Origin: Chiloscyllium plagiosum
Taxonomy: Eukaryota
Assembly (NCBI RefSeq): GCF_004010195.1
Contig: NC_057718.1
Location: 81,478,864-81,505,073 of the forward strand
Direction of reading: 5' to 3'
Length of the DNA stretch: 26,210 nt
In this document: piece by piece, positions 1,585 through 26,210 of the stretch
How positions within the stretch are numbered: position 1 is the stretch's first letter
Layout of the letters: each line of letters opens with the position of its first letter
Made by a program: the position numbers and the translations under genes
The notes under the pieces: model-generated
The model's input: the letters and a program-made list of their open reading frames with translations, nothing else
What the model was told of the DNA's origin: nothing
Database searches by the model: none

Positions 1585-1814
1585 AAGAGAAAGTGAGGAC
1601 TGCAGATGCTGGAGATCAGAATTGAAAGTGTGGTGCTGGAAAAGCACAGCAGGTCAGACAGCATCTGAGGATCAGGAGAATCAATGTTTCAGGCATAAGC
1701 CCTTCATCATCAATCAGGAAGCCCATTCCTGATGAAGGGCTTATGCCTGAAATGTCGATTCTCCTGTTTCTTGGATGCTGCCTGACCTGCTGTGCTTTTC
1801 CAGCACCACACTGT
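1585..1814. mobile_element. Fold-back PLE-terminus mini-element (family A) with two hammerhead motifs
   Basis: Arms ~1627-1709 and ~1730-1812 are reverse complements. Same sequence family as 24879-25929. Splits CR1 RT. No clear TSD. Confidence 0.85.
1725..1760 (+). ncRNA. Minimal type-I hammerhead motif (family A), CpG-decayed
   Basis: attc CTGATGA a gggc ttat gcct GAA atgt c gatt. The opposite-strand partner at 1679-1710 has its core disrupted by a small insertion. Confidence 0.65.
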
Positions 1815-6139: not shown

Positions 6140-6520
6140 TATAACATCTTCAGTATAGATTGGGAAAGGGGGAGGCGTAACAAGACCTGGGAGACCTTGT
6201 ACACCAGTTGTTGAATGTAAGCATGCAGGTGTAGCAGGTGGTGAGGAAAGCAAATAGTATGTTAGCCTCTATAGTGAGAGGAGTCGAGTATAGAAGCAAG
6301 GATATCTTACTGCAATTGTGAAGGGCATTGCTGAGACCACACCTGGAGTATTGTGTTCAGTTTCACTCTCCTTATGTCAGGAGAGGGAGTGCAACAAACG
6401 TTTACTAGACTAATTCCTGGGATGACCGGACTGACATATGAAGAGAGAGACAAGTTCAAGCCTATATTCATTAGAATTTGGAAGAATGAGGGATATCTCA
6501 CAGAAGCCTATAAAACTCTT
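6140..6520 (+). mobile_element. CR1 LINE RT C-terminal fragment
   Basis: gagaccacacctggagtattgtgttcagttt (RPHLEYCVQF) and FTRLIPGMTGLTYEER. Confidence 0.8.
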
Positions 6521-6809: not shown

Positions 6810-7332
6810 TCATAAGATTCATAAAGATGCACTGCATGGAAAAGGACCCTTCAGTCCAATTTGACCATGTAGATTAAATATTCTAAATTAATCTAGTCCC
6901 ATTTGCCAGCATTTGGACCATATCCCTCTAAACCCTTCCTGTTCATATACCTATCCAGATAACTTTTAAATGTTGTAATTGTACCAGCCTCCTCCACCAC
7001 CTCTGACAGCTTATTCCATATACACTGTGTATGTGTGAAAATGTTGCCCCTCGAGTCCCTTTTAAATCTTCCCCCCCTCCCCCGACCTTAAACCTATGCC
7101 CCCTAGTTTTGGACTCCCCTCCCCTGGGGAAAAGACCGTGTCTATTTATCTTATCCATGCCCCTCCTGATTTTATAAACTTCTATAAGGTCATCCCTCAG
7201 CCTCTGACACTCCAGGGAAAATAACCCTAACCTATTCAGCCTCTCCCTATAGCTCAAACCATCCAATCCTGGCAACGTCCTTATAAATCTTTTCTGAGCC
7301 CCATCAAGTTTCACAAGGATGTTGCCAGGATT
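6810..7332 (-). mobile_element. 5'-truncated CR1 LINE 3' end with a short inverted 5' segment
   Basis: ORF 6943..7335 reads QKRFIRTLPGLDGLSYRERLNRLGLFSLECQRLRDDLIEVYKI. Same family as 1-697. Confidence 0.9.
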
Positions 7333-9870: not shown

Positions 9871-10570
9871 TCATCCCCACTCTCAGCTGCAGAAGAGCCA
9901 GCAGTAGTTCCCAGGGCTGCTTCTGAGCCCTAGTATTGTCCAAGGCGGTGTCAGAAACCTTCTATCTCCACCTCAGCTTCCTTGAGTCATAACTGCGCTG
10001 AGCTATCCAACTGCTTCTGAAATGTCTTCCAAAGCCTCAACTACATAGCTAGTGACTTTCAACCACCTCCTTAACCACACTGCAAACAGCAACGCTTTTC
10101 CTGCTCCCATCCAATTGATTAACTCATCACCCCCATTTGTGGCCATCCGAGGTCCCACAACTGGATTTTCTCACCACTATTTTGAGGATAACTGAGGCTT
10201 GTCCAACATCTGTCACTGAGAAGAATCCAGAATGGTGGATGATGCATGTGTGGTCTGACCCATTTGTGCAGGCACTGGAACTCCCAGGGCATGCTGTTAA
10301 TTGAGGTTCTTGGCTTCCACCCTTAAAAAAGGTCAGTTAAGATTTCATTTGCCATTTTTCAACTGTACCCTTCCAGAATCAAGAACACTTTGGAAAATTT
10401 ACAACCAATACATTGATTATCTCTGCAACCATTACTTTTAAGCCTCTGGGATGTTGTCCATCAGACTCTTGAGACTCGTCAGTCTTTGTTCTAATAGTTT
10501 TCTTAGTTTTCTTTAACCTGGTTAAAAATCACACAACATCAGGTTATAGTCCAACAGGTATATGTGGAAA

Positions 10571-10605
10571 CACTAACTTTCAGAGCGTTGTTCCTTCATC
10601 AGCTG
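10571..10605 (-). ncRNA. Degenerate hammerhead motif (family B)
   Basis: Reverse complement: cag CTGATGA a ggaac aac gctct GAA agtt a gtg. Confidence 0.55.
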
Positions 10606-11202
10606 GTTGTGAAGAGTAAGATCATAAAATACAGAATTTATAGCCAAATGAGCACTCTGTCGTGGAGATGTGATGATACATTAGACAATTTTAGATCAAA
10701 TCTTTCATCTTTTAGAATAGGATGTGTTGGTTTCTGTTCTTTGATGTGTAAATCCCAGAACTTCTTTTAAATTACATTCTCAAGATAGCTAGCTTTTCGA
10801 ATAATAGTTGCCATCTCAGCTCAGACAATGCATTAAAGTGTGAGGTCTGTTTGTGTCGCAATGTTGAGTTAGACTGGTTCTACTTCTAAAGTGGGATTTA
10901 CAGCTTTTTACATGGATTCATGCAGTTTTTGAGCAAAATAATATGTAATTCTGCAAAACCAAATTCACCCTATAAACTTATATGTGTGCGCGTGTAGGAG
11001 AGACAGAATGAATGCATTCATGAGAGTGTGAGTGCATATCATAGTGTGTGCTTGGTTGTGTGTGTGTGAGAGAGAGAGAGATGGAGTATACGCCTTTGAA
11101 AGCGGCGCCATGGGTGAGAGTGCAGGGAGTGTATGTGTACATATGAGAGACAGCTTGTGTATGAGAGAGGGTGTGTGTGAGAGAGTGTATAGTGCAGTGG
11201 GG

Positions 11203-11507
11203 TCACCTGTAGTGTGACGTGAACCCAAAGTCCTGGTTGAGGTCATTCTCATGGGTACTGAACTTTGATATCAGCTTCTGCTCGGCCACTCTGCATTGTT
11301 GCTTGTCCCGAGGTCCACCTTGGAGGATGGTCACCCAAAGGTCTGAGGTCGAATGGCCTGGACAACTGAAGTGTTCCCTGACTGGGAGGGAACACTCTTG
11401 CCTGGTGATTGTTGTGTGGTGTCCATTCATCATTGTCTGAGTGTCTGCTTGGTCTTGCCAATGTACCATGCCTCAGGGCATCCTTGCCTGCAGCATATGA
11501 GATAGAC
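11203..11507 (-). pseudogene. PLE GIY-YIG endonuclease remnant
   Basis: Minus strand VYLICCRQGCPEAWYIG, then (frameshift) MNGHHTTI...LPVREHFS.PGH...AEQKLISKFSTHENDLNQDFGF. Confidence 0.85.
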
Positions 11508-11824
11508 GTGAGAATCCATGTAAAACACTGTAAATCCCACTTTAGAAATAGAACCGGTCGAATTCAACATTGGGACAGACAGACCTCACAACTTAATGCA
11601 TTGTCTGAGCTGAAATGTCACCTATTGTTAGAAAAGCTAGACCTATCTTGAGAATGTAATTTAAAAGAAGTTCTGGGATTTACATATCAAAGAACAGAAG
11701 CCAACACCTCATATTCTAAAAGATAAAAGACTTGATCTAAAATTGTCTAACGTATCATCACATCTCCATGACACTGTATTCATTTGGCTATAAATTCTGT
11801 ATGTTATGATCTTATACTCCACAA

Positions 11825-11859
11825 ACACTGATGAAGGAACAGCCCTCTGAAATCCAGTG
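11825..11859 (+). ncRNA. Degenerate hammerhead motif (family B)
   Basis: aca CTGATGA a ggaac agc cctct GAA atcc a gtg. Stems are eroded. Confidence 0.45.
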
Positions 11860-11983
11860 CTTCCAAATAAACCTGTTGGACTATAATCTGGTGATGTGTG
11901 ATTTTTAACTTTGTCCACCCCAGTCCAACACCGACATCTCCAAGTCATTCTTTAACCTGGTAATTGACATTGTTTTAAAGTTG

Positions 11984-12190
11984 AAAATGTGTTGCTGGAA
12001 AAGCGCAGCAGGTCAGGCAGCATCCAGGGAACAGGAGAATCGACGTTTCGGGCATAAGCCCTTCTTCAGGAAGAAGGGCTTATGCCCGAAACGTCGATTC
12101 TCCTGTTCCCTGGATGCTGCCTGGCTTGCGCTTTTCCAGCAACACATTTTCAGCTCTGATCTCCAGCATCTGCAGACCTCACTTTGTCCT
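11984..12190. mobile_element. Near-perfect palindromic PLE mini-element (family A)
   Basis: Arms ~11981-12067 and 12070-12152 around a 2-nt centre. Perfect 16-bp TSD cattgttttaaagttg at 11968-11983 and 12191-12206. Confidence 0.9.
12038..12073 (-). ncRNA. Minimal type-I hammerhead ribozyme, intact core (family A)
   Basis: Reverse complement: cttc CTGAAGA a gggc ttat gccc GAA acgt c gatt. Stem I is weak. The + strand mirror copy (12070-12100) lacks the CU of the core. Confidence 0.75.
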
Positions 12191-12794
12191 CATTGTTTTA
12201 AAGTTGTTTCCTCCCTTTCACCTGAATTTATAAGATTTCAGGGATTCTATTTATGCCTTCTACAATGAAGTCAGAGGCAAAAAGCAGAATTTTGGCATGA
12301 GCAGAGGTGAGAATGTTGAGAAAATACAGCAAGACTGGGAAAATAAATCAGAATCTTAACATAGAGACAATATTTTCTGATTCTCCCCTTAAGCTTAAAA
12401 TGGTGGGTTCAGAATCAGACTATTCAGAGGCAATGACCCTATCTCCATGTATTTACATCTTATTATTGGTCAATCTTGCTTTAGTTCTATGCAACTATCA
12501 AATGTCCCCTCCTTCCTTGAGAAGTTAGATGATACAAATGCCTGACTTGCAAGGCAGAGCAGGTGGCTGTAGCTCACAGAAACTTGTCCCTGCCATCAGC
12601 CAACAGTGTCTTCAACATAATGTCCCTAAGTGCTCCATGGAAACCATCTCTCTCGACCCTTCATCCACACATATTGACAGCAGCAAACTGCCAGACTCAC
12701 CACATCATTGTGCCTGTTCTTGGACTAACTCTGACACCACTTCAGTACTTCAACACTTCTATGTTTTTACTTGCATGTTTCTCCAAGGTGAAGG

Positions 12795-13738
12795 CACTGT
12801 ATCTGAATATATGGAGCATTTGTAACAAAAAGTATGAATTGTTCTACAGATTGAGGTAAATATACATTACAGAGATGTGGTTAGAGGGTTATTAGGGCTC
12901 AGACCTAAATGTTAATAACTAACAAAAAGCTAGGAAAAGTTGACATAAGTTCACTATTGAACTTAACTTGAAAGATCAAGATGTAAAACCAGTTTTGGCA
13001 GACGTATATAATATTAAGGGTAAGAGATTACTACTTATGCCTCCTATAATGTTCTGCTGTAGGAACATACAGGAAGGAATTAATGTAAGAAATGTACTGC
13101 AATATCGTGGATGACTCTAACCTATATATAATTTGGTAGATTTAAATTGGCAATGGTAGCTGTGGAGTTAATATGCATCTTTGGGACAGTTGCTTAAGCA
13201 GTATGTTTTTTTTGCCAAACAAGGACTAGGCTATCTTCATAATTTGCAATGAAACTGGATTAATCAATAGCCTATGGTAAAGTGTCTCCAGGTAACAGTG
13301 ATCATAAGGTACTCGAATTTCATGTTCAGTTTGAAAGAAAAAAGTGTGCAACAATGACAAGTGCTTTAAACTTTGAGAAAAGTAACTCCAACGGCGTGAA
13401 AGGTGAACTGGGAACAAATTAAAAAGGTAGGTCAATGAGGTTGAAGTGGCAGACCTTTATGGAGATGTTTAATAACTCTCAAAATGATCTATCTCAGTGA
13501 GAAAGAATGGCGCTTTGAGATGGATGCATCCTGAGTGGCTCCCTGTTATAAGAAATTTAAAGATAGCATTATATTTATACTGATTATTAAAATGCACAAA
13601 TATACAAGGAATAGTGGTAAATCAGACTTTAATACCAATGCAGAATGACTAGAAAGATAATAAAGAGGCAGAAAGCAGAGTATGAGGGAAAACAAATTAT
13701 AATATAAGAACAGATGGTAAATATTTCTGCAAGAATTT
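12795..13738 (+). mobile_element. Old CR1 ORF2 5' part (APE endonuclease region)
   Basis: ctgtatctgaat...agcatttgtaacaaa (LYLN..SI.NK), attacagagatgtggtta (ITE.WL), ggtaacagtgatcat (GNSDH). Continues at 16627. Confidence 0.65.
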
Positions 13739-15050
13739 TGTTATGATTACTTTATATTTGTGGACTTGCATTTAAAGGACTGTGGATACCTGGATATTTC
13801 TTTTAAAGAACTCAGTGAAAGGACACGGGAACATTTTTCTTTAAACAAGATGTTTCTTGGTAGTCGTGTATCTTGTGATAACTGCTTATTTACTGATGAT
13901 CCCCTGCCTGAGTTATAGTGGTCAGATTGAAGTTTAGGTTTTGAGTTTTCAATATGGGAAATGTGCTGAAAGAAAGAAGCTGCTCAGTTCATGTTTCCTA
14001 TTTCTGAAACATCATTGTGATGCAGTTGGAGTAAAACCTGATCATTCTCTTGGAGGGCAATGGAAGACATCTTGTTAGTGTATTTCCTGAGCAGGTTGGA
14101 TCTGCCAAGATCCCAGAGACAATGGCCTATGTTTAATGACACCTTTCTACACATACCAAAATAACAGCATCTGAACATTCCACACTTATCCTTTTTTATC
14201 CTTCAAACACTAAGGACAGAAACTTATATGGAACTGAATGACATGGCCTATGATAAATCTGGGAGAAATGCATTAAAAAGTCCAGTGAGGTTACTGTCAA
14301 CGTTAGGAGCAACTGGTCACATTTCCAGCAGTGTTCCAGACATGGAAATGGGTTTTTCACTAGGGAGTGGCGAAATGCCTATCAATGGGCTTATTGTTCA
14401 TTATCACCCTTATTGGCGCTGCATCTCACTACACTACTGTGCAGCTTCTTATTTACCACAGAACAGATAACCTAGATGCTGCAGATTCCTGACATTAATG
14501 TGAGAGTGGATACTTGGCAACGCCAGCTCGCTGCTTTCTCCTCTGGAATGTCATCTTGGAAGCCAATCACCAACAGCTCAGGGCACCAGTCACATGCACA
14601 TTATGCCACATACACTGGCATCTGATGTGTACCAGACTCTTCAATCAAGCATGACACATCTCTGATCCACTTACAGTACACTTCAATGCCGCACTTTGGA
14701 GTACATTGATGCATCTCATTCCAATGCTGCTCCAGGGATGCTTTGTACATAAGGATACCCAGAAGCTGATTGAACCAGTCTACAGTTCACTGCTCACTCA
14801 TTCTCCTCACTTGTGCCTACTTGGATACTCCCGATATCTCTGCCTTGCCGTGCCCTGCCCTGCATTTTATCACAGACACAGAGACAGGCAGTAATTGTTG
14901 GCAGTTACCATTCAAAGGGGTTGATGTTTTGCTGAATGTTACATCTGGTATATGACATCAGTGTTACACCTGCACATGTGTCAGCAGCAGACACACTGTA
15001 CGTGCTTCAAGCAAGTGGCCATGACATTGGATGGTCACAGTGTTCAAGGT

Positions 15051-15233
15051 GGTAAAAACAATGACTGCAGATGCTGGAAACCAGATTCTGGATCAGTGGT
15101 GCTGGAAGAGCACAGCAATTCAGGCAGCATCCGACGAGCAGCAAATTTATTCCTGATGAAGGGCTTTTGCCCGAAACGTCGATTTTGCCACTCGTCGGAT
15201 GCTGCCTGAATTGCTGTGCTCTTCCAGCACCAC
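15051..15233. mobile_element. Fold-back PLE mini-element (family A variant) with a hammerhead in the loop
   Basis: Arms 15094-15145 and 15184-15235. TSD tggtcac(a/g)gtgttca at 15032-15046 and 15234-15248. Confidence 0.9.
15149..15184 (+). ncRNA. Minimal type-I hammerhead ribozyme, intact core (family A)
   Basis: attc CTGATGA a gggc tttt gccc GAA acgt c gatt. Predicted cleavage after C15180 (GUC). Confidence 0.8.
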
Positions 15234-17096: not shown

Positions 17097-17279
17097 TCGA
17101 GTATGGTGCTGGAAACGCACAGCAGCTCAGGCAGCATCCGAGGAGCAGGAGATTCAACATTTCGGGCAAAAGCCCTTCATCAGGAATGACTCATTCTGGA
17201 TGCTGCTTGACCTGCTGTGCCTTTCCAGCACCACAGACTCGATGCTAATCTCCAGCATCTGCAGTCCTCACTTTCGCCT
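17097..17279. mobile_element. Fold-back PLE mini-element (family A)
   Basis: Inverted arms ~17097-17139 and ~17198-17242. TSD atg(t/c)tgttctttattg at 17081-17096 and 17280-17295, inside CR1. Confidence 0.9.
17152..17187 (-). ncRNA. Minimal hammerhead motif (family A), core intact, palindrome CpG-decayed
   Basis: Reverse complement: attc CTGATGA a gggc tttt gccc GAA atgt t gaat. Confidence 0.7.
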
Positions 17280-18169
17280 ATGCTGTTCTTTATTGCAAAG
17301 AGAATGGAATCTACAAGTTTTACTGCAGGTGTACAGGGCATTGATGAAACCAGATTTGGAGAAATGTACAGATTTAAAAAAATATATAATTGCTTTCAAA
17401 ACAGTTCAGAGAACGTTGACTTATTCATGGCATGAAGAGCTTATCTTTGAGGAAAAGTTGAACAGGTTAGGCCAATATCCATTGGAATTTAGAAGAATGA
17501 GAGGTGGTTTTATTGAAATATATAAGGTCTTGAGAGGAGTGGGTAGGGGGATACCTGGAGGATATTTCCTCTTGTGGGGAAATTAAGGTTATGGAATAAA
17601 ATTTAAATATAAGAGGCTCCTTGTAATGGTTGAGTTGAGGAGAGACTTTTCTTTCAGAGTGTCTTTAAGAATTCTGGGGATGGGCTGGCCACAGATATCC
17701 ACCATAAACCCACTGACTCTCACAGTTACCTTGACAATACGTCCTCATCATACATCCATTCTCCCAATTTCTCTGACTCTGTTGCATCTGTTCCGATGAT
17801 GCCAACCTCCACAAGGGGACCACCGAAATGTCCACCTTCTTCCTCAACCGAGGATTCCCCACCACTGTGGTTGACAGGGCTCTCAGCCAGATCTGACTCA
17901 TCTCCCGCACTTCAGCCCCCATCCACTGTCTTCCCTCCCAGCTTCAGGTTGCCTGCCTATTTAACACGCTGCCTTGTTCCCTGGTCAAAACCTCTGTCCA
18001 GTGAAGCCCAGTGTAAGCTGGAAGAACAACATTTCAATTTCCGCTTGGGAACCCTGCAACCTTCTGGACTCAATATCGAGTTCAATAATTTTAAGGCTTG
18101 AGCACCACCTCCTATGTTCTGACCCCAACCCCTCACACCCAGGCCTCACATAGTCTGCCACCACTTACA

Positions 18170-18304
18170 GGCAGAAGTAGGTACTGAGATCAGAGTCAAG
18201 ATTAGAGTGGAATTCCTGATGAAGGGCTTTTGCCTGAAACTTTGATTTTTCTGCTTCTCGGATGCTGCCTGACCTGCTGTGCTTTTCCAGCACCACTCTA
18301 ATCT
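18170..18304 (+). mobile_element. 135-bp PLE mini-element (family A) with hammerhead at 18212-18247
   Basis: attc CTGATGA a gggc tttt gcct GAA actt t gatt. Inverted repeat caagattagagtgg/ccactctaatcttg. TSD tgcca(c/t)cacttaca at 18156-18169 and 18305-18318. Confidence 0.85.
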
Positions 18305-18491
18305 TGCCATCACTTACAACCCATTGTCAATTGCGAGCAATCCCCATTTCCAGCAATTCGCTCTCCCAGGCTAACCTTTACACATTCCTTTGTTTGCCCA
18401 ACTGTTCTTTTGTCTGGGCTCAATCTCCATCTATGGATTACTTCTTACGCCTCCCACCCCATCCCTTCTCTAGCATACATATCAACCTTTT

Positions 18492-18878
18492 TTTCATATT
18501 TTCAATATTTACATATTTTTTATATTTCACCAGTTTCCTCATTTCCCTTCACCCACCTTACCTCAGTTCCAACCTTCCAGCTCAGCACCACCCCCATGAC
18601 CCATCCCATCTGTGCACCTTCCTTCCCATCTATACACTCCACTCTCCGACCTATCACCTTTAGCCCCACTTCCATCCACTATTGCACTCTCAGCTACCCC
18701 CCCAGCCCCACCCCCTCCCATTTATCTCTCCACCACTGAGGCTCCTAGCTTCATTCCTGATGATGGGCTTTTGCCCAAAACGTCGATTTTACTGCTCCTC
18801 AGATGCTGCCTGACCTGTGCTTTTCCAGCACCACTCTCTTGACGCTAAACTCCAACATCTGCAGTACTCACTTCCACC
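18492..18878 (+). mobile_element. 5'-truncated PLE 3' end (family A) with hammerhead at 18753-18788 (G12>A)
   Basis: C-rich UTR similar to 25620-25830, then attc CTGATGA t gggc tttt gccc AAA acgt c gatt. TSD tacatat(c/t)aacctttt at 18476-18491 and 18879-18894. Confidence 0.8.
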
Positions 18879-18905
18879 TACATATTAACCTTTTCCTAGC
18901 TACTA

Positions 18906-18947
18906 AGAGTTCTGAAGAAGGATCACTGGACCGAGAACATTAACTCT
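18906..18947 (+). ncRNA. Degenerate hammerhead motif (family C)
   Basis: agagtt CTGAAGA a ggatc act ggacc GAGA acat t aactct. 6-bp stem I agagtt/aactct. Confidence 0.6.
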
Positions 18948-19934
18948 GTTTTCTCTCCACAGATGCTGCCTGATCTGAGTTTTTCCAACAATTTCTGTCT
19001 TCATTCAACAACTTCTTTAAAAAAATTTTATGCCCACAGGATAAGACTATTGCTTCGGGTGTTTGAAATCAGAACTCCTGATTTCAGGGCTCCCAGATTT
19101 GGGAGTCACATCTGCCTTTGCTGCCTATTATCTAATGACAATCAGATCTGTTGGAAATGGGAGGACATCCTCTTGGTTCAGCTCTTGCTTGTCATTTTGG
19201 AAGGTCGTTATAGTTACCAGAATCTTCAAAAATTCAGGACCAAGTCTAGATCATGTTTTGCATCACACGGTCAAAAAGGAAGAATACCAAGAGCTTGTTG
19301 ACATGATAGCACCAAGCTTGAACTATCCTTACTGTCAAGAATCTGAAGGCTCAGGGCCACTGTATCTGTTGATTCAAGGTTTTAGAATGATTGCTTACCA
19401 GAGTCTGTGTTCAGAATATTTGCAATTTACAGCATATGAAATTGCTGACAGTTATGTGAATATCTAAACCAATACAGGACGTGTATTCACTGTCTTCCTG
19501 GAGAATAATTGTTTGATTGGAAACACAGCTCTCATTAATGACAAATGGTCTGTTCAGAGTTAATGTGTACCAATAAATGAGCCTAAAGATTTGACCTCAC
19601 GTCTCCTGCTAATCCTCATTCATGCCTCCAAATCTAATAATCCTTTAAAAGGAGCAGGGTCTAATGTTGGAAGCAATTTGCAGAAATAATTATATAAATG
19701 TAAAAACAAAAATTAAAGCAAAGTAAACATAGAGATTTAGCACGCTTCGTCATTTTGGAGCTTTCTGCCATGTAAAGGTGTAGGTGTCTTTGTTTAAGGT
19801 AAAGGAAAGCAGTAATTGATGCAGAGCTATCTGTATAATTTTCATGATTTGGAGATGCCGGTGTTGGACTGGGGTGTGCAAAGTTAAAAATCTTACAACA
19901 CCAGGTTATAGTCCAACAGGTTTAATTGGAAGCA

Positions 19935-19969
19935 CACTAGCTTTCGGAGCGACGCTCCTTCATCAGGTG
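19935..19969 (-). ncRNA. Minimal type-I hammerhead ribozyme, intact (family B)
   Basis: Reverse complement: cac CTGATGA a ggagc gtc gctcc GAA agct a gtg. Confidence 0.85.
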
Positions 19970-20524
19970 ATAGTGGAGAGCTCAATCCTAACACACAAAA
20001 TTTATAGCAAAAATTTACAGTGTGATGTAACTGAAATTAAACATTGAAAAATTGATTGTAAAGCCTTTCATCTGTTAGAATACAGTGATAGTTTCACTTC
20101 TTTCATGTGTAAATCACAAAACCTTTTTTTAAAAAAGTTGCATTCTCGGGTTAGCTGTTAACAATGGTGATAGCTGGACAATATGTTGAAGGTGTTAGCC
20201 CCCTGTGTTCTCTGTCTATGCCATGATGTTTAGATTGATTCTAATCTAAAAAGTGAGATAACGAAGTTTTACATGAATTCATGCGTACAAATTCACCCCA
20301 CAAAATATGTGTTCATGTGGGTCATTGTCTGTCTGGGTTGGGGGTTGTGAGTGTGAGAAAGTGTGTGTGTGTGTAGTGAGTGCAGAGTGTCTTAAGTCTG
20401 TGAGAGGGTGTGTGTCTGTAAGGGTGTGTGTGGGTGTCTGTGTGTATGTGTGTCCATGTGTATAGGAGTGTGTGTGTGTGTGTGTGTAGGAGTATCTGTG
20501 TGTGGGTGTATAGTGCAATGGTGG

Positions 20525-21109
20525 TCACCTGTAATGTGACATGAACCCAAGGTCCCGGTTGAGGCCCTCCCTATGGGTACCGAACTTAGCTATCAGCTTC
20601 TGCTCGGCCACTTTTCTCTGGTGCCTGTCCCGAAGTCTGCCTTGGAGGATGGTCACCCGAAGGTCCGAAGCTGAATGTCCTGGACCACTGAAGTGTTACC
20701 CAACTTGGAGGGAACCCTCCTGTCTGTTGATTGTTGTGCGGTGCCCATTCATCCGTTGTTGTAGCCTTTGCTTGGTTCCCCAATGTACCATGCCTCCGGG
20801 CATCCTTGCCTGCAACATATAAGATAGACAACGTTGGCTGAGTCACATGAGTACCTGCCATGTACAAGGTGGGAGGTGTCCCCACCTGTAATGGTGGTAT
20901 CTATGTCCACACTCTGACTCGTCTTTCAGCGTCTACCATGACAGGGTTGTATGGAGTTGTCCTCAGAGCCGGATAGCTTGCTACGAACAACGATCTGTTT
21001 GAGGTTTGGCGGTTGTTTAAAGGCAAGTAGTGGAGGTGTGGGGAAGGTCTTGGTGAGGTGCTCATCCTCATTGATAATGTGTTGCAAGTCACGAAGAACA
21101 TGGCATAAT
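20525..21109 (-). pseudogene. PLE linker and GIY-YIG endonuclease, disrupted
   Basis: LRDLQHII...FPTPPLLAFKQPPNLKQIVVRSKL...PCHGRR*...YSCDSANVVYLICCRQGCPEAWYIGE/(frameshift)...RMNGHR...AEQKLIAKFGTHREGLNRDLGF. Confidence 0.9.
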
Positions 21110-21489
21110 GGATTACATTGTACTTTGCTCAAAAACTGCATGCATTCATGTAGAACTCTGAGCTCAAAAACTGCATGAATTTATGTAAACTTCCGTTATC
21201 TCACTTTTTAGATTAGAATCAATCTAAACATCAGGTCATAGACAGAGAACACAGGGGGCTAACACCTTCAACATCTTGTCTAGCTATCACCATTGTTAAC
21301 AGCTAACCCGAGAATGCAACTCTTTTTTAAAAAAGTTTTGTGATTTACACATGAAAGAAGTGAAACTATCACTGTATTCTAACAGATAAAAGGCTTAACA
21401 GGCAATCAATTTTTCAATGTATAATTTCAGTTACATCACACTGTAAATTTTTGCTATAAGTTCTGTGTTAGGATTGAGCCCTCCACTAT

Positions 21490-21524
21490 CACCTGATGAA
21501 GGAGCGTCGCTCCGAAAGCTAGTG
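21490..21524 (+). ncRNA. Minimal type-I hammerhead ribozyme, intact (family B)
   Basis: cac CTGATGA a ggagc gtc gctcc GAA agct a gtg. Predicted cleavage after A21521 (CUA). Confidence 0.85.
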
Positions 21525-21857
21525 TGCTTCCAATTAAACCTATTGGACTATAACCTGGTGTTGTGTGATTTTTAACTTTGTATAATTTTCCTGTTCTTGT
21601 TTTATAAAGTATTTCCTTTCCTCTGTTTTCCATGCTAGTTTATTGAATCATGTTCAATAGGATCTAAGGACTTCTATAGAAAAACAAAATACTCCATTAA
21701 AGGTCTTCTTGGAAGTCAAGACTTCTGAAGAGAGAAATAGCGGTGATATTAACAAAGCCACAAGCTCGAGGTCAGACTATGGGCTACACTGTATGAAGAC
21801 ATCATCTCCTCTGTATCATGACCCATTATGTGTCTTCCAATAAAAACTGTAATAAAA

Positions 21858-23279: not shown

Positions 23280-24298
23280 AATAGCGAAATGTTTCAGAAT
23301 TTGCCAATGATGCCAAAATTGGAGGAGTCATATGTAGTAAGGATGCTACTATTCAATTTCACCAGCAAAACGGGCAGACAAGTGGTAGATTGAGTTAGTA
23401 TAGAAAAGTGTGAAGTGATATATTTTGACAGGAGGAGTAGGGAGAGGCAATATAGACATAATAGTACAATGCTAAAGGGATGAAGGGGCTGAATTTCTTG
23501 TGCACAGATCTTTGAAGGTGCAAGAGCATGGTTAGCATAAAAGGAGTTTGGGCTTTATAAACAGATGTATTGAGTACAAAAGCAGGCAAATTGTAAATTT
23601 GAAATTTTAAAAACTCTGGTTAGGCTACATGAGTATTGTCTTTAGTTCTGATCTCCATCCTTCAGGCATGATGTGAAGACTCTCATGATGAGGGAATTTA
23701 ACAACAAGGTTATCTTGGAGTTAATTTCCATGGAGCAAAGGTGGTTTTAGGAGATGTGATGAAAATTGTACAAGGTTATAGTGCATCTAGATAAGGTAAT
23801 AAAATCAAAGCTATTCTCCTTACCTAATGTACAAGGGCTAATTGTCACCTATTTAAAGTCTTTAGCAAGAGATGGGCAGCAGAGCTTTCATACACTGCTA
23901 ATGACATCAGACTGTCTGCTATGAGAGAGAAGTAGAGGTAGGGATATTTGGAGGGATTTGTTTGGCCACTTATGGGAAATAAGCTTGTAGGGCTATGGGG
24001 ACAGAGCAGGGACTGGAGCTAAAAAAAACTAAAAGAACTGCGGATGCTGTAAATTTGAAATAAAAACAGAAGTTGCTGGAAAAGCTCAGCAGGTCTGGTA
24101 GCATCTGTGAAGACAAATGAAAGTTAACATTTTGGGTCCGATGACCCTCCTCAGATCAGTTCTGAGGAAGATCACTGAACCCAAAACATTAACTTTGATT
24201 TCTCTTCACAAGGGATTGGAACTGACTGAACTGCTTTGCAGAGAACGAGCATGAATTTGATTGGTTAAGTGGCCTCCTTCTGTGTCACAATGAGTCAT
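23280..24298 (+). mobile_element. Old CR1 RT C-terminus and tail, interrupted at 24021-24210
   Basis: tttgccaatgatgccaaaattggagga (FA.D.KIGG), aagtgtgaagtgatatatttt (KCEVIYF), ctctggttaggc. Tail tggcctccttctgtg. Confidence 0.75.
24021..24210. mobile_element. Fold-back PLE mini-element (family C) with two back-to-back degenerate hammerheads (24122-24156 -, 24158-24194 +)
   Basis: agtt CTGAGGA a g atcactgaaccc AAA acat t aact and its mirror copy. TSD aggga(c/t)tgga(g/a)ct at 24008-24020 and 24211-24223. Confidence 0.8.
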
Positions 24299-24610: not shown

Positions 24611-24972
24611 AGCAGTGTATAACAATTAACGATCATTTAACTTCATCTCTTTCCTTTGCTAAGGGAATGGACTGCTATCATTTCCTTTCATTACAATGAT
24701 AACATTCATGTGTCACTGGTCCTACATTTCATAACTGAGGATGTTCAATAATTCATAACATCCCATATCTTTTCCAGCAGGTGGTCTTTAACTCACAGTA
24801 TTCAAACTACAGGGTGAAGATCTAAAATGTTACAGGCTACTTTTCTACATCTTGGCAAAAAAGGGTTATATTTTAACTAGGAGAAAGTGAGGTCTGCAGA
24901 TGCTGGAGATCAAAGTTGAAACTTTATTGCTGGAACAGCACAGCAGGTCAGGCAGCATCCAGGGAACAGGAG

Positions 24973-25008
24973 ATTCGACGTTTCGGGCACAGGCCCTTCT
25001 TCAGGAAT
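24973..25008 (-). ncRNA. Minimal type-I hammerhead ribozyme, intact (family A)
   Basis: Reverse complement: attc CTGAAGA a gggc ctgt gccc GAA acgt c gaat. Confidence 0.87.
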
Positions 25009-25202
25009 GAGCAGAGAGTGTTCAGCAGGAGAAGATAAAAGGTAGGGAGGAGGGACTTGGAGGAGGGGAGTTGGAAATGTGATAGGTGGAAAGAGGTCAA
25101 GGTGAGGGTGATAGGTCGGAGTAGGACGGAGGCGGAGAGGTCAAGAAGAAGACAGCAGGTCAGGAAGGCGGTGCCGGGCGGGAAGGATCCGGCTGAGACA
25201 AG

Positions 25203-25697
25203 GTGGGCACCTTCCCTTGCAACCGCAGGAGGTGCAACACTTGCGCCCACACCTCCCCCCTCACTTCCCTCCAAGGCCCCAAAGGAAACTTCCATATCCG
25301 CCACAGATTCACCTGCACCTCCACCCACATCATCTACTGCATCCGCTGCAGCCGGTGTGACCTCCTCTATATTGGGGAGACAGGCCGCCTACTTGCGGAG
25401 CGATTCAGAGAGCACCTCTGGGCCACCCGGACGAACCAACCCAACCAACATGTAGCACAGCATTTCAACTCCCCCTCCCACTCCACCGAGGATATGCAGG
25501 TCATTGGACTCATCCACCGCCAAACCACAACAACCCGACGGTCGGAGGAGGAGCGTCTTATCTTCCGACTGGGAACCCTCCAACCACAGGGGATGAACTT
25601 GGACTTCACCAGTTTCTTCATCCCCCCTCCCCCCACCTGGCTCAGCCGAATCCCTCCAGCCCGGCACCACCTTCCTGACCTGCAGTCTTCTTCTTGA
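25203..25697 (+). CDS. PLE Cys-rich linker and GIY-YIG endonuclease domain (open frame, 5'-truncated, no RT, no ATG start)
   Basis: CNRRRCNTC, HIIYCIRCSRCDLLYIGETGRLLAERFREH, HFNSPSH, EERLIFRLGTLQPQGMN. Confidence 0.85.
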   Translation: MGTFPCNRRRCNTCAHTSPLTSLQGPKGNFHIRHRFTCTSTHIIYCIRCSRCDLLYIGETGRLLAERFREHLWATRTNQPNQHVAQHFNSPSHSTEDMQVIGLIHRQTTTTRRSEEERLIFRLGTLQPQGMNLDFTSFFIPPPPTWLSRIPPARHHLPDLQSSS

Positions 25698-25829
25698 CCT
25701 CTCCGCCTCCACCCTACTCCGACCTATCACCCTCACCTTGACCTCTTTCCACCTATCACATTTCCAACGCCCCTCCTCCAACTCCCTCCTCCCTACCTTT
25801 TATCTTCTCCTGCTGAACACTCTCTGCTC

Positions 25830-25865
25830 ATTCCTGAAGAAGGGCATGTGCCCGAAACGTCGAAT
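25830..25865 (+). ncRNA. Minimal type-I hammerhead ribozyme, intact (family A)
   Basis: attc CTGAAGA a gggc atgt gccc GAA acgt c gaat. Predicted cleavage after C25861 (GUC). Confidence 0.88.
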
Positions 25866-25944
25866 CTTCTGTTCCCTAGATGCTGCCTGACCTGCTGTGC
25901 AGTTCCAGCAATAAAGTTTCAACTTTGATATGCAGCAAGACCTA

Positions 25945-26210
25945 ACTTGGAGATGTTGGTAGTGGACTGTGGTGGACAAAGATAAAAATCACACAACACC
26001 AGGTTATAGTCCAACAGGTTTATTTGGAAACACTAGCTTTCAAGGCACTGCTTCTTCATTAGGTGGTTGTGGAGAATAAGGTCATAAAACAGCATTTATA
26101 TCCAAATGAGTACAGTGTCATGGAGATGTGATGATACATTAAACAATTTAAGATAAATTTAGGATGGGATGTGTTGGTTTCTGTTCTTTGGTATGTAAAT
26201 CCCAGAACTT
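25945..26210 (-). mobile_element. Family B PLE pseudo-LTR running off the window, with mutated hammerhead at 26031-26065
   Basis: Homologous to 10523-10770. Reverse complement cac CTAATGA a gaagc agt gcctt GAA agct a gtg (G5>A). Confidence 0.85.

Follow-up and report, generated by a model that had tools for sequence, protein, structure and literature searches.

A 207-bp insert (11984-12190) lies between two exact 16-bp repeats in the window, by which is meant the whole 26,210-nucleotide stretch of Chiloscyllium plagiosum DNA that was analysed. The repeats form a target-site duplication (TSD) of 75% A+T, and both the size of ~207 bp and the perfect 16-bp TSD given in the initial annotation are borne out. 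The 16-mer occurs exactly twice in the window and is extendable on neither side; base composition gives a probability of ~8e-10 that an exact 16-mer falls at a particular place, and of 3000 random pairs of 40-nt windows placed 223 nt apart, the three that reached 16 nt all overlapped this same TSD. Between the repeats, two copies of the 3′ end of a Penelope-like element (PLE) family, here termed family A, meet head to head, and a 40-nt tail is present on one arm only (Table 1). Each arm shares 90-92% identity with an end of the family-A copy at 24876-25948, which encloses a GIY-YIG endonuclease fragment, in agreement with the earlier reading of the insert as PLE terminus. In family coordinates, the tail-less arm begins 3 nt ahead of the hammerhead core and stops 40 nt before the terminus, and the sense arm differs from both the left arm and the family by one local change, a 3-nt loss and a mismatch.

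The middle of the insert is a perfect palindrome with 54-bp arms and the loop AG (12014-12067/12070-12123), and 12014-12123 is the sole perfect palindrome in the window with arms of at least 12 bp and a loop of at most 12 nt. It extends to arms of 84 nt (11984-12067) and 81 nt (12070-12150) with one mismatch and a 3-nt indel, close to the ~85 bp annotated, except that the palindrome is not the whole insert, as 12151-12190 (40 nt) is without a pairing partner. Similarly, the annotated 2-nt centre is the AG loop of the perfect palindrome, and with the arms mapped on the family it is replaced by a 3-nt overlap (GAA); the two mapped arms do meet in the hammerhead core, where the annotation had placed the centre. 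The capacity to form a hairpin, also proposed there, is supported by the computed RNA fold of the insert (-172 kcal/mol, z = -21), with 0 of 200 shuffles as stable. The CpGs were described as intact, which holds relative to the window (8 in 207 nt; observed/expected 0.57 versus 0.22 window-wide) and applies to two sister copies as well (0.59 and 0.47). The description as ORF-less fails mechanically, with stop-to-stop frames of 82 and 119 aa crossing the insert, and stands in the sense that neither frame has a Pfam match.

Table 1. Coordinates of the insert, its parts and the related insertions in the window
Feature	Position	Strand	Basis or remarks
Left TSD copy, 16 bp	11968..11983	.	last 2 nt equal the element's next bases (5 matches in the final 7 nt)
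Inverted tail-less arm, PLE family-A 3′ end	11984..12072	-	92% identity to copy 24876-25207
Intact minimal-hammerhead core	12042..12069	-	descriptor scan, constrained folding, motif type per PMC4209133
Junction, 3-nt overlap GAA common to both arms	12070..12072	.	arms mapped on the family
Sense arm, PLE family-A 3′ end from the third core base	12070..12150	+	plus-strand core broken
One-sided PLE tail, 40 nt, ending at the family terminus	12151..12190	+	definition from PMC8557442, PMC3846280, PMC11167929
Right TSD copy	12191..12206	.	organism B contig matches from exactly 12191, none into the element
Longest family-A copy, inverted arms around a GIY-YIG fragment	24876..25948	+	300/317 aligned positions identical
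GIY-YIG endonuclease fragment	25197-25697		PF01541, E 4.4e-05, 24.1 bits against a cut-off of 22.6
Sister short family-A palindrome	15047..15233	.	187 bp, TSD 15 bp (1 mismatch), tail 49 nt, different centre
Sister short family-A palindrome	17097..17279	.	183 bp, TSD 16 bp (1 mismatch), tail 37 nt, different centre
Older sister family-A palindrome	1587..1812	.	core in both arms; no TSD found
Family-B insertion, same anatomy	10523..11947	.	exact 14-bp TSD (10509-10522 and 11948-11961), tail 40 nt
Second family-B insertion	19844..21578	.	exact 12-bp TSD, tail 37 nt, GIY-YIG remnant on the minus strand

Penelope-like families and sister insertions in the window

The sequence of the insert matches many places in the window, and the GIY-YIG fragment within the longest copy ties family A to the PLEs. 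By eye, two cysteines (CxxC) lie between the IY and YIG motifs, and a CX2-5CxxC linker with the sequence CNRRRCNTC lies upstream of GIY-YIG, both of which are features described in PMC8557442; on sequence grounds, the CX4CxxC spacing of this linker points to Neptune or Nematis rather than Poseidon. Pfam detects reverse transcriptase in none of the 87 window frames of at least 70 aa, and all window copies are 5′-truncated. A host protein domain is likewise absent from these 87 frames, in which short exons would escape detection. The other two of the three Pfam matches, FANCL_d1 and Lantibiotic_a, fall below their cut-offs and are regarded as noise. The family motifs gave no match in metagenome contigs and none in genome contigs.

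Eight candidate PLE insertions were recognised, of which the five with a clear TSD (three of family A and two of a second family, B) were counted for tails and TSDs; 1587-1812, 18186-18880 and 24876-25948, for which no TSD was found, were left out. All five TSD-bounded insertions, ranging from 183 to 1735 bp, are complete at one end and fall 37-49 nt short at the other, inverted end. For the insert and the copies at 15047, 17097, 10523 and 19844, respectively, the tails measure 40, 49, 37, 40 and 37 nt and the TSDs 16, 15, 16, 14 and 12 bp, with an A+T content of 53-83%. The sisters have these ends in common and not their centres, as the four short family-A palindromes (the insert and those at 15047, 17097 and 1587) have four different centres. 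The furthest 5′ reach upstream of the hammerhead core is 3 nt in the insert, 8 nt at 1587, 4 nt at 15047, 6 nt at 17097 and 4 nt at 18212, and because it stops 3-8 nt upstream of the core in all five short copies, centres in the hammerhead area are to be expected without a separate family.

These sister copies bear directly on the possibility that the insert is a non-autonomous palindrome of MITE-like or retrozyme-like type, moving independently as one unit with the help of PLE proteins. The perfect TSD, the compact size and the occurrence of several hammerhead-centred palindromes of ~180-230 bp within one 26-kb window would suit such an element, but four centres in four short copies would not, nor would inverted repeats that are not terminal, nor the presence of the same ends on coding remnants of 1.4-1.7 kb. 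A common centre with private variants at loci with different TSDs was not seen within the window. MITEs are short, non-coding elements with a long terminal inverted repeat, a fixed short TSD, uniform copies and a DNA-transposon parent. The insert is similarly short and non-coding and has a long inverted repeat and a TSD, whereas its inverted repeat is not terminal (a 40-nt unpaired tail occupies one end), its parent is a retroelement, the TSD is 15-16 bp in family A and 12-14 bp in family B, and the centre changes from one short copy to the next. Non-LTR retrozymes, which in animals are thought to be PLE-dependent, are also small, non-coding, hammerhead-bearing and highly self-paired, with TSDs of more than 4 bp (PMC7229834). 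However, they are direct head-to-tail tandems of 150-450-bp monomers with canonical self-cleaving hammerheads and with monomer RNAs in linear and circular form (PMC7229834), whereas the insert is one head-to-head pair whose minimal core is buried and whose sequence is directly homologous to a coding PLE; neither a head-to-tail 150-450-bp tandem nor, by computation only, a canonical type-I hammerhead is found in the insert (PMC7229834, PMC6765202). The four centres and the head-to-tail build of retrozymes argue against the non-autonomous retrozyme-like element offered as the second option of the initial annotation, and a palindromic element that is mobile in its own right appears improbable.

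The insert lies next to the family-B insertion at 10523-11947, whose right TSD ends 6 nt before the left TSD of the insert. A BLAST alignment joining 11668-12072 to 25831-26210 raised the possibility that the left arm continues into a longer element, which was rejected as family B has its own exact 14-bp TSD; the two are adjacent but separate insertions. Families A and B lie side by side twice, at 11948-11983 and at 25930-25950, where the long family-A copy adjoins a family-B end on its right, and this adjacency suggests common AT-rich targets or insertion beside earlier PLEs.

Several further repeats were observed in the window. A complex family-A insertion at 18186-18880, with no TSD found, consists of a ~25-nt inverted piece of the tail region followed by two direct units in partial tandem (18212-18312 and about 18520-18880). 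At 18892-18990 and 24029-24150, diverged ends resemble family A and carry a different hammerhead-like stretch, possibly representing a third PLE family. In family B, the short arms (10919/11512; 20284/21173) end at about one family position, ~400 nt from the 3′ end, which may be the 5′ boundary of the pLTR of this family, and a 12-bp palindrome lies near the short-arm end at about 20272-20283. GT/GA-rich simple repeats (11025-11200 and 20320-20517) occur just downstream of the endonuclease remnant inside both family-B elements and are thus part of the 3′ region of the family. Other repeats without a Pfam match include 144-690 with 6820-7316, 2291-2445, 6307-6445 and 17320-17580. The translations of all these repeats resemble the 3′ end of a CR1/L2-type LINE, and the palindrome at 1587-1812 apparently lies inside one copy of such a repeat.

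The hammerhead motif and its folding

The minus-strand core of the insert comprises CUGAAGA, a stem II of GGGC/GCCC, GAAA, the palindromic ACGU and the cleavage site UC, while the plus-strand core is broken. A hammerhead descriptor yields 11 matches in the window, one on the minus strand at 12069, and all but one or two of the matches are in register within families A and B. The family hammerheads fit the minimal PLE type in which a palindromic stretch replaces stem III (PMC4209133). As in the minimal hammerheads of metazoan PLEs, which are mostly found on truncated PLE pieces, the core in the insert is of type I with one unpaired base before stem II and a palindromic stretch in place of stem III (PMC4209133). 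Pairs of minimal hammerheads on opposite strands, ~100-700 bp apart, are described in Schistosoma (PMC4209133); the insert differs in that two copies are fused through the core, with one intact core, a stem I of two pairs and a hairpin that buries the motif. Rfam returned no hammerhead match in the window. Its seven microRNA-precursor matches, at 28-41 bits against gathering thresholds of 82-104, were set aside as generic hairpin matches.

In constrained folding, holding the minus-strand core open costs ~28 kcal/mol (-171.8 versus -143.5), and stem I of this core consists of two pairs only. For minimal hammerheads, monomers are reported to lack activity and dimers to be weak (PMC4209133). From the modelled fold, self-cleavage of the insert's hammerhead is unlikely, a transcript through the insert would be a long double-stranded hairpin, and the hammerhead is best understood as a passenger that the hairpin would disable. 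The term ribozyme in the initial annotation is therefore an overstatement for a core that is broken on one strand and, on the other, buried and limited to two stem I pairs, and this state of the core further counts against an element spreading on its own. As a separate observation, the tailed arm of the sister copy at 15047-15147 aligns from family position +30, and the predicted hammerhead cut falls after +28; in this one case, the arm may be cDNA that ran to the end of a ribozyme-cleaved RNA.

Age of the insert and recurring centres in public runs

Thirteen of 24 public runs, from organisms A and B, hold at least half of the window's words, and four of the 24 (X1, X2, X7 and X13) were aligned; no RNA run was among those containing the stretch, an outcome with no bearing on expression. 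X1 and X2 are two organism-A samples of one study, X1 possibly being the source of the assembly, and summed contig depths were not taken as copy numbers. The right-flank contig in both X1 and X2 includes 12165-12190 (26 nt of the tail), which places the insert in the organism-A samples. In X13, from organism B, a contig of 2969 nt aligns to 12191-13200, differing at 30 letters and by 6 gaps; the match begins at the first base of the TSD (12191), and 58 further letters are unaligned to the element. With the reservation that it is one contig at depth 2.8, it looks as an empty site would, in line with the proposal that a relative be examined for one. The exact empty-site joint is absent among the 15 joints listed of 857, and the X7 flank contig begins at 12214 and is uninformative on the presence of the insert. 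Judged by its exact TSD, its near-identical arms and its apparent absence in a ~3% diverged relative, the insert looks young, which upholds the annotated view of a recent retrotransposition product.

The apparent youth of the insert weighs against its being the stump of a longer inverted PLE copy whose middle was deleted after insertion, through a cruciform or by microhomology. Deletion usually removes palindrome centres and does not create perfect ones, which counts further against such an origin. It would also leave unexplained why the longest 5′ reach ends 3-8 nt upstream of the core in five short copies. On the other side, the window contains longer inverted-arm copies with these ends (24876-25948), the two arms overlap by 3 nt at the centre, and microhomology-mediated deletions in PLE copies have been reported (PMC3846280). 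A deletion after insertion is an improbable source of the palindrome.

The same flank data bear on whether the palindrome is an artefact of assembly or library preparation, i.e., a fold-back chimera. Some library types are known to generate perfect palindromes artefactually, and no listed contig bridges the exact centre with 31 letters on each side and zero differences. The exact TSD, the one-sided tail, the difference between the arms, the same anatomy in decayed sisters and the tail joined to the right flank in two samples, however, make an artefact very improbable.

The annotation had proposed a search for copies with the identical central junction as a check on an independently mobile family. 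In the window, the four centres differ. Among the 15 listed joints (857 in all), 13 run from the left arm to the right arm or tail at different places, which is consistent with many different centres; their sides are at most 28 nt at 88% likeness, some may be misplaced, and the clustering at 12072 is in part forced by where the reference arm ends. A centre like that of the insert but shorter by 3 nt does recur, in 44, 37, 17 and 22 contigs of the four runs and in both organisms, and these contigs do not link centres to flanks. Pairing of the same GAA end with the next TTC would yield this shorter centre, and the recurrence of a near-identical centre fits a hot spot and also fits a palindromic subfamily. 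The recurrence in 17-44 contigs per run from two organisms is thus a point in favour of a mobile palindromic unit, as is one 92-nt contig that bridges the centre with 4 gap letters at ~4x the flank depth. The proposed test is weaker than it appears, because the 5′ ends cluster upstream of the core and the core is self-complementary, so that identical centres can arise independently. That some hammerhead-centred palindromes of the family, possibly including the insert, spread as non-autonomous hairpin-RNA units, built from two PLE ends and mobilised in trans by PLE proteins, is improbable.

Origin of the head-to-head arms

The insert closely follows the complex insertions described for endonuclease-bearing (EN+) PLEs. 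The published anatomy includes an inverted, 5′-truncated copy at the 5′ end and a 30-40-bp tail that is often one-ended (PMC8557442), with a TSD around the whole unit, e.g., a 31-bp tail with a 9-bp TSD (PMC3846280). The head-to-head inverted copy, the one-ended tail of 30-40 nt, the TSD, the AT-rich target and the overlap at the inverted junction are common to these insertions and the insert (PMC3846280, PMC8557442). The insert differs in that both copies are cut to about 90-120 nt, with no ORF or full pLTR left, in that its TSD measures 16 bp against 8-10 bp in the rotifer examples, and in that the junction falls inside the hammerhead core. A GIY-YIG-linked family, an inverted 5′-truncated copy, a one-ended tail, an AT-rich variable TSD and a minimal hammerhead are all found here. 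The insert is very probably a one-off minimal insertion of an endonuclease-bearing PLE that is now a dead stump, and the first option of the initial annotation, a truncation-inversion product, is favoured by this published pattern and by sisters that share ends and not centres.

Within such a one-off insertion, the palindrome probably originated from two separately primed cDNAs. The GIY-YIG nuclease of the element would make a 16-nt staggered cut, and each 3′ end of the target would prime reverse transcription on the element RNA, one cDNA being primed at the end of the tail and the other at an internal start ~40 nt upstream, possibly helped by pairing of 2 nt. Both cDNAs, some 90-120 nt long, would end where the hammerhead begins, the place at which the 5′ ends of the family pile up, and their 3′ ends would anneal via GAA/TTC and then be filled in, such that the palindrome would be a by-product of integration. 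Several of these steps have counterparts in the Poseidon element of Anolis carolinensis (PAc). Its protein, a predicted dimer, cleaves AT-rich targets on both strands, extends both, and uses two reverse-transcription starts that bracket the tail, as proposed here for the insert; in vitro, hammerhead cleavage is not needed (PMC11167929). PAc also has a similar core with the GAAACGUC motif (PMC11167929) and differs from the family of the insert in the CX4CxxC linker that, by eye, precedes GIY-YIG in the latter. At the tail-less end, the end of the TSD matches the element's next bases over 2 nt in four of five copies, in contrast to the priming without homology to the target reported for PAc (PMC11167929).

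An alternative for the same one-off insertion is that the second arm was produced by self-priming of one strand and the tail-less end by endonuclease resolution. Self-priming, on an antisense template, has been proposed from palindromes at inverted junctions (PMC3846280), and endonuclease resolution has been proposed for the tail (PMC8557442). Fold-back of a tail-primed cDNA calls for a tailed arm extending at least as far 5′ as its partner. In four of the five TSD-bounded insertions, a small sample, it is the tail-less arm that extends further 5′, with an excess of 5 nt in the insert (marginal, resting on 2 nt outside the overlap), ~33 nt at 15047, ~48 nt at 17097 and several hundred nt at 10523, where the tail-less arm carries an endonuclease remnant. 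Since a single tail-primed cDNA cannot supply a longer tail-less arm by folding back and so cannot template both arms, and an internally primed cDNA could not template the tail, these four copies favour two primed cDNAs over simple fold-back. Only the copy at 19844 has the longer tailed arm that self-priming predicts. The near-identical arms are also in keeping with self-priming, the GAA/TTC overlap could close a small hairpin, and the centre of the copy at 17097 (17183-17197) contains a 6-bp mini-palindrome with a 1-nt loop, after which the right arm resumes at +43. This last centre resembles a brief fold-back followed by a jump. Overall, self-priming of one strand is a weaker though serious candidate, and two primed cDNAs are about twice as likely within a one-off PLE insertion.

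The origin of the inverted copies and one-sided tails of PLEs is described as undefined in PMC8557442, and the formation of inverted junctions is not discussed in the accessible portion of PMC11167929. A search of mostly open-access literature found only PMC3846280 on head-to-head PLE priming, and double priming could still be published; no paper on these elements in sharks was found in a search largely without subscription literature.

Taken together, the insert represents the described PLE insertion pattern rather than a novel ribozyme element able to spread by itself. On its own it is of minor importance, being a clean, young example of that pattern, and its MITE-like look and weak matches to microRNA-hairpin models make it an annotation trap. 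In such stumps, a single sequencing read covers the junction together with both priming ends, and the reach of the arms, the tail-less breakpoints and the junction overlaps over many genome copies could separate double priming from self-priming by fold-back. A palindromic subfamily moving as a unit, if true, would be a new type of PLE parasite, in which case the near-identical centre seen repeatedly in two organisms would be the signature of that subfamily and not of a hot spot. The chances are about even that the stumps more generally record double priming, with two cDNAs, one from each start site, united where the hammerhead is self-complementary, and this, if true, would explain the head-to-head structure that the PLE papers leave open.
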